A stretch of DNA of 64,000 nucleotides from the NCBI GenBank assembly GCA_027021705.1, contig JALUTT010000117.1, forward strand, positions 1 through 64,000, in the 5' to 3' direction. This stretch comes from Anaerolineae bacterium. Lineage in GTDB: Bacteria; Chloroflexota; Anaerolineae; S140-20. The position numbers are program-made. Shown here in pieces: positions 6,001-9,000 of this stretch. Positions within the stretch are counted from its first letter, which is position 1, and each line of letters opens with the position of its first letter.

Positions 6001-9000
6001 CCACCTCCTCGGCGAACTTGGTGTTGACCAGGGGGCGGATGTGGATGCAGCCGGCGCTGGCGTGGGCGTAGTAGGCCACGCGGGTTCCCAGGTCGTTGCA
6101 GAACCGCTCGACGCGGGTGACGTACTCGGCCAGGTGCTCCACCGGCACGGCGGCGTCCTCGATGAAGGGGATGGGCTTGTGGTCCCCCTTGATGCTCATC
6201 ATCAGCCCCAGCCCCACCTTGCGCACCGTCCAGACGTTGCTCTGGAGCTGAGGGCTGAGGGCCGGCACGATGGTGCGCCCCACCTTCTCCCGCCGCAGAT
6301 GGGCCTCCAGCCGCTGCACCTTGGCCTCCACCTCGGCCTCGCTCTCGCCGTAGAACTCGGTGATGAGGACGCAGTTGGGATCGCCTTCGATGAAGGTGGA
6401 GAGCAGCCGGGCGTAGGCCGGCACCTCGCGGCAGAGGGTCAGCCCCAGGTGGTCCAGCAGCTCCACCGCCGAAGGTTCCACCTCCAGGATGGTGGGCACG
6501 GAGGAGAGGGCTTCGTAGAGGCTGTCGAAGTGGACGATGGCCAGGGCGGTCCGGGTGGGGATGGGCACCAGGTTGAGCTTGATCTCCGTCATCACCGCCA
6601 GCGTCCCCTCGGAGCCGCAGATCAGCTTGGCCAGGTTGAAGCGGCGGTCCTGGGGATAGCGGAAAGAGGGGCCTTCGACGAAGCGGTCCAGGTTGTAGCC
6701 GCCGCAGCGCCGCCAGTGGCGGGGCGTCCCGGCACGGATGGTGTCGGCGTGGGTCCGGGTGATCTCCCGGATGCGCCGGTAGATGGTCCCCTCCAGGCCG
6801 GACCGCTGCTCCCGTCGGGCCACCTCGTCCTCCTCCAGCGGGCCGAAGGTGGCGGTGCTGCCGTCGCTGAGGATGACCCGGGTCTCCAGCACGTGGTCGG
6901 CGGTCATCCCGTACAAGATGGAATGGGCGCCGGTGGAGTTGTTGGAGACGATGCCGCCCATCGCGGCCCGGTTGCTGCTGGCCGGGTCGGGGCCGAACTG
7001 GAGCCCCAGCGGGCGCAGGTGGAGGTTGAGTTCGTCCAGCACGACGCCCGGCTGGACCCGCACCCAGTGCTCCTCGACGTTGACCTCCAGGATCTGGTCC
7101 AGATGGCGGCTCAGGTCTATCACCAGCGCCTCGTTGACGGCCTGACCGGCCAGGCTGCTGCCGGCGGTGCGGGGCAGGATGGGGAGCCGGTACTGAGCGG
7201 CCAGCTCGACGGCGGCGTGAACATCCTCAACCGTCTTGGGGATGAGCACGCCGTAGGGGATCACCTGGTAGATGCTGGCGTCGGTGCTGTAGAGGACGCG
7301 GGTGTAGGGGTCGGTGCGGAGGTCGCCGGCGACCCGCGCCTGCAGGTCGTGCAAGAAATCCTGAATCGCGCCTGTCGGTTGCATAAGCACACCTCGCTTT
7401 CGGAGTTGCCCCCTGCCGATGGGGCAACGGAGGCTGTCACCGGATTCCTTGAGCGGATCGAAGGGGTTGAGGGTCGGATGGGACGGCGGAGTCTTGTTGG
7501 TAGCGGACTATCCCTTGGAGTCGTGGGAGGGCCTCTCCCGCAGGAGCGCTTCGGCCCGCTGGAGTTCCCGTCCCAGGTAGACGTAGTGTTCCGGCAGGGA
7601 GGCCAGGCGCAGGCGGGCGATCTCCCGGCCCAGCGCTTCGGCTGAGCGGCCCCGACGGTGCCAGATCACCCGGTCCCCCTGGGGGGAGAGCAGTTCGACG
7701 ACGATCTCCTCCCCCTCTACCCGGACGACGAAGTTCCCCTGGGGGTCTCGGTCCATTCCCTTTCGCTCCCGCCACCACCGGGCGGCGATCTCCTCAGCCC
7801 GCTCCCAGTCGTGGGCGTAGACGTGGGCCGAGACGGTGAAGCTGGTCAGCGGTCCCGGCGAGAGGCCCAGTTCCCGGGCCAGCCGGCCCTGGAGCCGACG
7901 CATCGCCAGCGTGTTCTGGGGCCAGGCGGCGAAAAGGTCCTGGCTGCGGGCCACGTAGGTCAGGAAGAGGCGTCCCGCCACCACGTTGGCCACCACCTGG
8001 GTGAGACAGGGTGGGTGCTCCGCCTCGGCGTCGCAGGCCGGGTCCCAGAGGACGGCGACGGCCCGCCGGCTGTGAGGGGCCTGGCGCAACCGCTCGGCCA
8101 GCCGGGCCACTTGGTCCAGCCCGAAGTGGGCCCGCAGTCGCTCCCCGTAGGTATAGGCCGTCCCCGCCCCGGCGTCCGCCTCCAGGACGGAGGGCAGGTA
8201 GGCGGCCAGGGCCTCCCGGCTCACCCCCATCCAGTCGGGGAGGTAGGGCTGCTCCGGGTCTTCGTCGGTGACCACGGCGGTGATGTTCAGCAGTTCCCGC
8301 TGGAGGATCGCCTGCTCGCTGGGCTTCACCGTCCCGAAGCGGAGCACCAGGTCGAGGAGACGGGGCCAGGCGTCGGCCACCCGCCGTCCCTGGACGGTGA
8401 AGCCGGCGCCCAAGGAGGGGAAGGTCTCGGGCGGTGTGGGCTCAGGGGTCGGGAAGAGGCGGGGGGAGGCGTGAGGGGGCAGGGGGGGCAGGTCGGCGAT
8501 GGCCTCGATCACCCGATCCACCGAGCGCACCGCCCGCAGGTCCAGCAGCCGCACGGCCCGGCGCAGCGCCTCGACGGCCTCGGCGGGGAGGGCCGGGTCC
8601 AGGCGCACCTCGGTGCCGGCGATGCGGTGGTCCTCCGACAGCCCGTGGGTCCAGAGGGCGTGGAGGGCCGCCCCGGTCCGGGTCGTGTCCGGCCCCCAGA
8701 GGACCAGGTAGCGCAGGGAGGGCAGCCGCCAGAGGGTGCGCAGCAGGAGGCTGATGCCCCGGGCGGTGTAGAGGTTGCCGACGAGGGCGATCTGCTGCAG
8801 CCCCGACCCAAAGGTCACCCGGCTCAAATCCTTCCAGAGGGCACAGAGCCCCACGTTGGCCTCCAGGTTGCCCACGATGAGGCGGTGACGGGCCAGGTAG
8901 AGGTCCAGCGGCTCGGGGTCCGAAGGAGCTGGCTCAGCCATGCTCGATCCTCACCAGATCAGCGGCCAGGCGGGTGGATCGCTCTTCCGGGTCGCGGTAG

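Follow-up and report, generated by a model that had tools for sequence, protein, structure and literature searches.

A three-domain MtrA-like/ThyA/DUF4346 protein is a candidate thymidylate synthase that displaces ThyX and appears independent of FolA

Sequence and distribution data support the view that a protein in which a ThyA core is joined to an MtrA-like and a DUF4346 domain is a candidate dUMP-to-dTMP synthase displacing ThyX. The initial annotation had proposed a third route to dTMP in which the extra domains replace FolA. The displacement of ThyX and the uncoupling from FolA are borne out; that the extra domains are the replacement is a weaker proposition.

The gene encoding this 477-aa protein (P0001) lies at 7508..8941 on the minus strand of the window, i.e. 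the whole stretch of 64,000 nucleotides that was analysed. It is a genuine gene: its GC content at codon positions 1, 2 and 3 (0.77/0.50/0.91) resembles that of ribF and truB, the values being 0.91/0.52/0.75 for the overlapping frame on the opposing plus strand. A GAGGA ribosome-binding site (8948..8952, minus strand) is located 6 nt 5' of the ATG. The start overlaps the stop of a ribF-like gene located directly upstream (8934..9866, minus strand), which suggests translational coupling of the two genes. This ribF-like gene encodes a FAD synthetase domain and gave no riboflavin kinase Pfam match. It is preceded by a nusA-ylxR-infB-rbfA-DHH-truB cluster (9866..16278, minus strand), in which truB was named by Pfam and the other genes from their translations. 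In a genome of the same class (G069), the order is truB-ribF-thyX and the nusA-to-truB cluster terminates in thyX. Hence, the three-domain gene occupies the slot directly after ribF that is held by thyX in G069. Since it is a matter of operon context, adjacency to ribF was dismissed as a clue to a flavin. A CobA-like neighbor was likewise dismissed as a clue to B12 because the same gene flanks thyX. No RNA holder was found among the matches listed.

The three-domain gene is the only candidate for a de novo thymidylate synthase in its genome, which gave one match each to the N, TS and C sub-profiles of the family. The lone weak PF02511 match lies in an unrelated ORF and was dismissed as fortuitous. 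Neither PF00186 (FolA) nor RibD_C was detected in this genome, and six FolA/DHFR-like queries found no match in it. The earlier statement that the genome has no dihydrofolate reductase is nevertheless true of FolA only, since a short-chain dehydrogenase/reductase (SDR) with the FolM/PTR1 motif (TGxxxRxG) is encoded upstream of dnaA, at 9869-10666 of contig C23. The best models for this SDR are PRK09134 and PRK09135 (230 and 214 bits, both under their cut-offs), and FolM (5tgd) is its sixth match (E 1e-36).

As initially reported, the family comprises 363 representatives at E<=1e-30. Carriers include 21 of the 111 Cyanobacteriota and 21 of the 261 Patescibacteria sampled, counts that comprise non-independent kin and many incomplete genomes. 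DPANN archaea also carry the family, and named carrier records include Microcystis, Nostoc and UCYN-A. The mutual exclusion with ThyX that had been noted is confirmed in two phyla: ThyX is found in none of the seven Chloroflexota carriers (and in 141 of the 161 genomes of the phylum sample), and in 0/21 cyanobacterial carriers vs 88/90 non-carriers. By contrast, the claim that ThyA is absent from non-carriers fails to generalize, as 11 of the 141 ThyX genomes of the phylum sample hold a ThyA-family gene. Genes for dCMP deaminase, dCTP deaminase or dUTPase occur in 54/83 named loci, which come from a motif scan (80 listed of at least 120 stretches) biased toward motif-bearing members, and in 9/15 Patescibacteria loci of 20 kb. 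The reported proximity to dCTP deaminase does not apply to the genome analyzed here, where the dCTP deaminase gene is on another contig (C132). The first 30 cyanobacterial thyX loci (3.5 kb) were too short for a comparison of neighbors.

The initial Pfam layout (MtrA, residues 23-151; Thymidylat_synt, 265-391; PterinBD-DUF4346, 399-470) was reproduced exactly. The ThyA core (7766..8428, minus strand; about residues 172-392) is short and apparently of the archaeal/methanogen type. Its best family model is TIGR03283 (thy_syn_methano), which matches residues 183-381 over the whole profile with 153.1 bits, under the cut-off of 174.55; the canonical model TIGR03284 gives 46.7 bits, below its curated cut-off of 108.35. 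The fold and the motifs of canonical ThyA (PF00303), the enzyme of the ThyA-FolA-GlyA cycle, are retained: the catalytic Cys312 in a P-P-C motif (codon at 8006..8008, minus strand), R332-S-x-D335, N343 and H373-x-Y375. In agreement with the residue conservation first described, these positions are kept in most of the 134 aligned members (C312, 132; R332, 133; S333, 129; D335, 129; N343, 127; H373, 124; Y375, 127). However, an alignment with four canonical-type rows showed that neither the G-L-P-F stretch nor the C-terminal tail of the canonical enzymes is retained, the tail being the part that closes the folate site. In a tree, three-domain cores form a group separate from canonical ThyA, the relation among the three groups being unresolved (74/87 support, long branches) and methanogen sequences being absent. 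The methanogen/archaeal enzymes likewise have a short core devoid of the canonical tail. The three-domain protein differs from them by a score under the TIGR03283 cut-off, by its two added domains and by its hosts, which are folate-using bacteria. According to PMC9012536, the biochemistry of this archaeal type is little known. This methanogen-type core and the commonness of the family in cyanobacteria had both been overlooked in the initial annotation.

The AlphaFold model (pLDDT 93.9, pTM 0.83) and its Foldseek match to ThyA (E 3.6e-15) agree with the confident ThyA-like model reported earlier. In this predicted model, the core comes closest among solved structures to AfhB of phage HY126 (9iqu, Z 23.9; 9iqc, Z 23.3), followed by MilA (5jnh, Z 22.4), with rmsd of 1.8-2.1. 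Canonical ThyA structures come behind (Z<=21.2), the lead being 2 to 3 Z units. The sequence profile, on the other hand, ranks canonical ThyA first (E 1.5e-28) and leaves AfhB outside the best 60. As the title of 9iqc mentions bound dCMP and FAD, a short ThyA fold is able to bind FAD. The resemblance to AfhB and MilA raises the question of whether the protein is a dUMP hydroxymethylase or another nucleotide modifier, with dTMP coming from salvage. We consider this very unlikely, even though thymidine kinase is present in the genome analyzed here (G000) and in G036, ThyX occurs in 4/50 named carriers, and several genomes of the phylum have short ThyA-type genes beside ThyX, one of them adjoining a QueC-like gene. 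Judging by their PDB titles, AfhB and MilA act on (d)CMP. In dCMP/CMP hydroxymethylases and AfhB, an Asp at the Asn177 position is expected to specify cytosine. In the three-domain family, the equivalent position, N343, is the uracil-type Asn in 127 and Asp in four of the 134 members. The distribution is that of a housekeeping gene. Moreover, the complementarity with ThyX in two phyla, the shared thyX slot, the neighbors that would supply dUMP and the failure to find a thymidine kinase in UCYN-A (G191) all argue for a dTMP synthase. With ThyX, the protein shares this genomic role, the slot in G069 and a life without FolA, but the two are unrelated in sequence and fold according to Pfam and Foldseek.

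ThyA and FolA form a coupled pair according to PMC9931769. FolA is found in 0/21 Patescibacteria carriers vs 98/107 other ThyA genomes; therefore the independence of the three-domain family from FolA looks real. None of the seven Chloroflexota carriers has FolA either. We tentatively favor, while holding it somewhat short of probable, a mechanism in which the methylene comes from folate and the reducing step takes place inside the enzyme, perhaps by means of a flavin. The loss of the G-L-P-F stretch and of the tail, the structural proximity to AfhB and the retention of nucleotide-tail pocket positions of MtrA without its His (see below) count in its favor, whereas the ranking by sequence profile counts against it. 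The protein would be a housekeeping enzyme turning dUMP into dTMP, in which Cys312 would attack C6 of dUMP and the carbon would come from methylene-tetrahydrofolate, as in ThyA. Handling of the reducing step within the enzyme would remove the need for FolA. Most likely, a second bound cofactor, with reduced flavin as a first guess, would donate the hydride and tetrahydrofolate would be released intact; in a second form, dihydrofolate would be re-reduced on the same chain. Independence from FolA would probably be a property of the short core.

It is also possible, if somewhat less probable, that the chemistry is that of ordinary ThyA, in which folate supplies carbon as well as hydride, with release of dihydrofolate and recycling by a separate reductase, the extra domains only binding or capping folate. 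This reductase would be the FolM/PTR1-type SDR in the genome analyzed here, FolA in some cyanobacteria and an unrecognized enzyme elsewhere. FolA is indeed present in 5/21 cyanobacterial carriers vs 1/88 ThyX genomes, a higher retention that is expected if dihydrofolate is produced. Furthermore, a stand-alone short ThyA is the sole synthase candidate in 7 of the 161 genomes of the phylum sample, where ThyX, FolA and DUF4346 are absent; it thus manages without the module, which was absent in 5/5 of such genomes in a search run without a positive control. UCYN-A and G008 have FolP without FolA, and therefore an unknown reductase exists there anyway. More generally, according to PMC1971073, folate makers without FolA exist and the missing dihydrofolate reductase is a noted gap. 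In addition, DUF4346 is found fused to dihydropteroate-synthase-like proteins (TIGR00284). However, besides the Patescibacteria counts, in 8/10 small-genome carriers no SDR reaches E<=1e-45 against the pteridine reductase model. Among the best 30 loci, the FolM/PTR1-motif SDR was found in five other Chloroflexota carriers but also in four ThyX genomes, and is therefore not tied to the three-domain enzyme; among the same loci, the top SDR matches of cyanobacterial carriers and UCYN-A carry G-x-G instead of the R motif.

The MtrA-like domain (8447..8890, minus strand; about residues 18-165) matches Pfam MtrA below the cut-off (E 2.3e-4). A family profile matches MtrA (5laa) over positions 1-154 (E 8e-22), and the predicted fold of a two-domain relative superposes on 5laa with Z 16.7, rmsd 2.7 and 139 aligned residues. 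Profile and model thus indicate a full-length homology with the MtrA cobalamin-binding domain (PF04208; 5laa, 5l8x) that is firmer than previously supposed. W36, G55-x-L-Y-S/T and G62 are retained, as are positions S/T59, G62 and N69 of the pocket that holds the nucleotide tail. On the other hand, equivalents of the axial cobalt-binding His84 and of its partner Glu54 (residue roles from PMC4915002) are missing, as the initial annotation had stated for the His. The His loop is shortened to 8 residues in 103/134 members, any His is found in 13/134 and the Glu position is variable.

These features bear on a further mechanism, which we regard as improbable, in which B12 bound to the MtrA-like domain passes a methyl to Cys-activated dUMP and folate is not oxidized. 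Besides the homology to MtrA, some two-domain relatives retain T-E-N-x-G plus the cobalt-binding His. P0282, an MtrA-ThyA fusion from a single-contig genome without FolA (G343), retains G-H and is flanked by genes for dCMP deaminase and thymidylate kinase. Of five Patescibacteria carriers searched, two yielded SHMT, the three misses being single-contig genomes; these misses are left unexplained by the flavin-type mechanism that we favor. However, in addition to the shortening of the His loop, MtrH was absent in 5/5 carriers searched, and glyA adjoins the family gene in one locus (L084). UCYN-A has the three-domain gene, FolP and SHMT, and neither ThyX, FolA, MTHFR nor MtrH was found in it; its one Pterin_bind match is FolP-like by frame length, and there is therefore no evident methyl-folate route.

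The PterinBD-DUF4346 domain (7532..7747, minus strand) features D399-P-x-G, H452 and G-x-E-L. His452, previously described as invariant, is in fact present in 131/134 members, and the family-typical terminal [YF]-x-Q-D reads P-S-H-D in the copy analyzed here. The ThyA core interrupts an MtrA-like/DUF4346 module, with one half on either side. The module is also found without ThyA, in two-domain proteins (NF002128-like); eight genomes of the phylum sample encode it in this form, all with ThyX. The DHPS-like/DUF4346 proteins (TIGR00284) likewise share flanking domains and lack the ThyA core. One relative (P0126) is fused to dCMP deaminase, and no fusion longer than 959 aa was found, which is weak evidence. 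A phage collection yielded no full-length relative. In the mechanism with an internal reducing step, the module might hold or deliver the cofactor in the nucleotide-tail pocket of MtrA. The C-terminal tail shuts the folate site in ordinary ThyA, and DUF4346 might substitute for it. The only hints on packing of the N-domain against DUF4346 come from predicted models, i.e. the pTM of 0.83 and a two-domain model aligned in Atlas over residues 10-445. No reductase fold was found among the matches listed for the two-domain model, nor any FolA, RibD_C-like or FolM match among the Pfam and fold matches listed for the extra domains, which may tell against an internal reducing step; DUF4346 alone gave no usable feature match.

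Textbooks describe two dTMP routes. It is possible, though less likely than not, that the family represents a third class of thymidylate synthase, with a ThyA fold and a non-folate reductant (flavin, or a corrinoid methyl in some members) provided via the MtrA-like/DUF4346 module. If true, the enzyme would do without dihydrofolate reductase and, in certain very small genomes, possibly without serine hydroxymethyltransferase as well. The dTMP route of about one fifth of the cyanobacteria sampled (21/111) would then be masked by the label 'thymidylate synthase'. More broadly, a widespread ThyA-fold family appears to uncouple ThyA from FolA in three phyla and to substitute for ThyX: a reductant proper to the enzyme would make this a third mechanism, and otherwise the carriers would indicate a missing dihydrofolate reductase. 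Furthermore, the family provides a model that uses folate for the little-studied archaeal ThyA enzymes. No description of DUF4346 or of the three-domain fusion was found in titles, abstracts and passages of the literature, a search that covered few subscription papers. A COG table lists 23 ThyX and 8 ThyA among 31 cyanobacteria, and surveys have probably counted three-domain proteins as plain ThyA.

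The initial annotation's observation of a three-domain thymidylate synthase is confirmed by the ORF, Pfam, AlphaFold and genome searches. The gene (7508-8941, minus strand) encodes a protein of 477 aa in which a Pfam search again found MtrA, Thymidylat_synt and PterinBD-DUF4346. Each domain occurs once in this genome (G000), and the codon-position GC pattern of the ORF matches that of the neighbouring genes. Its AlphaFold model has a pLDDT of 93.9 and a pTM of 0.83. For the ThyA core, the best NCBIfam model is the methanogen-type TIGR03283, covered over its whole length with 153 bits (cut-off 174.55), far above the canonical model TIGR03284 (46.7 bits). 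ThyX (PF02511), FolA (PF00186) and RibD_C are each without match in G000 (94.9% complete), which encodes SHMT, MTHFR, thymidine kinase, tmk, dcd (on a different contig from the three-domain gene) and a MetH-sized Pterin_bind match, with no FolP-like match. The SHMT match lies inside a 1123-codon open frame (G000:C181:32650-36018, minus strand) that may be a fusion or merely a long GC-rich frame. The three-domain gene closes a nusA-infB-rbfA-truB-ribF cluster, its start overlapping the ribF stop. This ribF homologue (window 8934-9866, minus strand), the sole one of the assembly, has an FAD synthetase domain and no riboflavin kinase Pfam match. On the same strand, 118 nt downstream of the three-domain gene, lies an FAD-linked oxidase (window 4430-7390, minus strand) that also contains 4Fe-4S and CCG domains; it does not figure among the genes listed as recurring beside the family gene in other carriers. 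Window 540-4295 (plus strand) encodes a 1251-aa CHAT/NB-ARC/TPR protein, which contains an internal repeat and numerous TPRs.

The three-domain protein is a variant of the ThyA family that is previously undescribed in the literature searched: no description of the fusion was found in main texts, although supplements could list such proteins. Archaeal ThyA is described as poorly characterised (PMC9012536). The family is widespread, and the count of 363 representatives at E<=1e-30 was reproduced. A motif scan for family loci returned at least 120 stretches, 80 of them named among the matches listed; all 80 carry the three domains or part of them (contig-cut or frameshifted), and source records label these proteins plain 'thymidylate synthase'. 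Cyanobacteria predominate among these named matches (Nostoc, Microcystis, Calothrix, Microcoleus, UCYN-A), which also include Chloroflexaceae, DPANN archaea, Patescibacteria and one Clostridia MAG. An alignment retained 134 of 151 sequences (query plus 150 relatives) of 440-550 aa, with one near-copy removed. In these 134, the dUMP-site residues are kept (C312 132, R332 133, S333 129, D335 129, N343 127, H373 124, Y375 127), as are W36 (133), Y58 (122) and G62 (132) of the MtrA-like domain and D399 (134), G402 (132) and H452 (131) of DUF4346. A terminal [YF]-x-Q-D motif is found in 110, and reads P-S-H-D in the G000 copy. Two family members (P0090 and P0103) carry a second ThyA copy in tandem, in which the catalytic Cys is missing (P-S in place of P-C), together with another DUF4346, an arrangement resembling a covalent pseudo-dimer. 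Genome G346 encodes a permuted form of 794 aa (L311:8655-11039, minus strand) with MtrA-like, DUF4346-like and then ThyA core with altered motifs.

Replacement of ThyX, as initially proposed, is well supported. Among 161 genomes of the phylum, DUF4346 occurs in 15, seven with the three-domain protein and eight with a two-domain MtrA-like/DUF4346 protein without ThyA. ThyX is encoded by 141 of the 161 (including the unpublished G160 and G038, which bear on nothing else here), by all eight two-domain genomes and by 17/17 of the same class, versus none of the seven carriers, so that mutual exclusion in Chloroflexota holds. In the complete genome G069, truB-ribF is followed directly by thyX, at the position that the three-domain gene occupies in G000; this order was seen in one of three same-class thyX loci examined. 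Likewise, 111 Cyanobacteriota comprise 21 carriers and 88 ThyX genomes with zero overlap, the remaining two having a different ThyA and FolA. An rph-adk-cobA-like cluster lies beside thyX in 4/12 loci and beside the three-domain gene in 12 to 19 of 58. Among 50 named carriers (all 22 without a cyanobacterial label and 28 of 58 cyanobacterial), four encode ThyX, every one DPANN or Patescibacteria. A dUMP-supply gene is present in 54 of 83 named loci; one family member is fused to dCMP deaminase and another has glyA adjoining. That the protein makes dTMP is highly probable, and some role other than dTMP synthesis very improbable. A domain resembling nucleoside 2-deoxyribosyltransferase, either by itself or joined to dCMP deaminase, lies near the gene in 15/58 cyanobacterial loci (e.g. 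L090:2685-3722, minus strand). In five genomes of the phylum (G001, G030, G072, G113, G145; G113 single-contig, three of them congeneric), searches matched neither ThyA nor ThyX, and all seven genomes of small-genome family f22 (L033-L038, L044) hold ThyX plus a short ThyA with intact motifs.

ThyA and FolA are described as coupled (PMC9931769). Since FolA is rare in every group of the phylum (one strong match in 161 genomes), its absence from Chloroflexota carriers is barely informative. The telling comparison comes from Patescibacteria: among 261 genomes, two atypical fusions left out, FolA occurs in 0/21 with the full-length three-domain protein (in pieces in G490), 98/107 with another ThyA and 15/131 without any match, counts on which a Fisher p overstates the contrast because kin share labels. 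Cyanobacteriota count against this pattern, with FolA in 5/21 carriers versus 1/88 ThyX genomes. A strong FolA match was found in 3 of the 50 named carriers.

Independence from FolA appears genuine in Patescibacteria, while the proposal that the extra domains replace FolA is only partly supported, being weakened by stand-alone ThyA, by the module without ThyA and by an SDR with a FolM motif. In seven of the 161 phylum genomes, which have no ThyX, FolA or DUF4346, ThyA stands alone as a protein of about 220 aa whose motifs are intact; the profile of the MtrA-like/DUF4346 module, in a search without positive control, had no match in 5/5 of these searched. The module without ThyA occurs in ThyX genomes, also as a large family. 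In the Cyanobacteriota sample, DUF4346 is also encoded by itself, as a protein of about 130 aa, in carriers as well as in ThyX genomes. Some DHFR activity has no assigned gene, and TGxxxRxG is the motif of PTR1/FolM (PMC1971073). An SDR with this motif, for which pteridine-reductase models rank first but under cut-off, lies directly upstream of a dnaA-like gene (G000:C23:9869-10666, plus strand; L230:6900-7670) and is a candidate alternative dihydrofolate reductase. Ordinary ThyA chemistry with a hidden separate reductase, which this SDR could provide by recycling dihydrofolate, is possible but doubtful. FolM could cover G000 but not the whole family: within the top 30 loci of an 80-genome search, such SDRs occur in six Chloroflexota carriers and four ThyX genomes and not among cyanobacterial loci, and 8/10 small-genome carriers have no pteridine-reductase-type match at all.

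The homology of the N domain to MtrA is genuine. In MtrA, cobalt linkage involves His84 and Glu54, and nucleotide-tail contacts include Thr53, Gly57 and Asn64 (PMC4915002). Mapping was guided by two-domain relatives that retain T-E-N-x-G and G-H. The three-domain family lacks this His and Glu but retains S/T59, G62 and mostly N69 (Thr in the G000 copy). This pattern would fit a pocket that takes up a nucleotide-like cofactor and not a corrinoid with His as ligand. No clear relative of DUF4346 with a solved structure emerged; elsewhere the domain is fused to DHPS-like proteins, and its Pfam name says pterin-binding, a name whose underlying literature was not found. Unlike canonical ThyA, the core lacks the C-terminal tail and the G-L-P-F stretch. 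In structure comparison the core scores highest against AfhB (Z 23.9 and 23.3; the title of one of the two entries names dCMP and FAD), followed by MilA (Z 22.4) and canonical ThyA (Z<=21.2), whereas canonical ThyA leads by sequence.

UCYN-A has the three-domain gene, FolP and SHMT, with no match for ThyX, FolA, FolM-type SDR, thymidine kinase, MTHFR or MtrH. This gene set speaks for methylene-folate as the source for making dTMP de novo in UCYN-A and against a methyl relay there, and shows that some unrecognised step reduces dihydrofolate in this cell. We tentatively prefer that the three-domain enzyme would handle the reducing step within itself; that it represents a third mechanism of thymidylate synthesis is a real possibility, though less likely than not. 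SHMT was undetected in three of five Patescibacteria carriers searched (G335, G369, G506, all single-contig and also without FolA; no control group), and their one-carbon source is left unexplained by the proposed mechanism. A corrinoid relay of the methyl group is improbable, UCYN-A having no MTHFR or MtrH match, but one protein that internal reduction leaves unexplained speaks for it: in G343, a single-contig genome that lacks FolA, the dTMP slot, with dCMP deaminase on one side and thymidylate kinase on the other, is occupied by a 558-aa MtrA-ThyA fusion (L312:8572-10248, plus strand), which retains the G-H motif of MtrA, and thus the His, and has no DUF4346.
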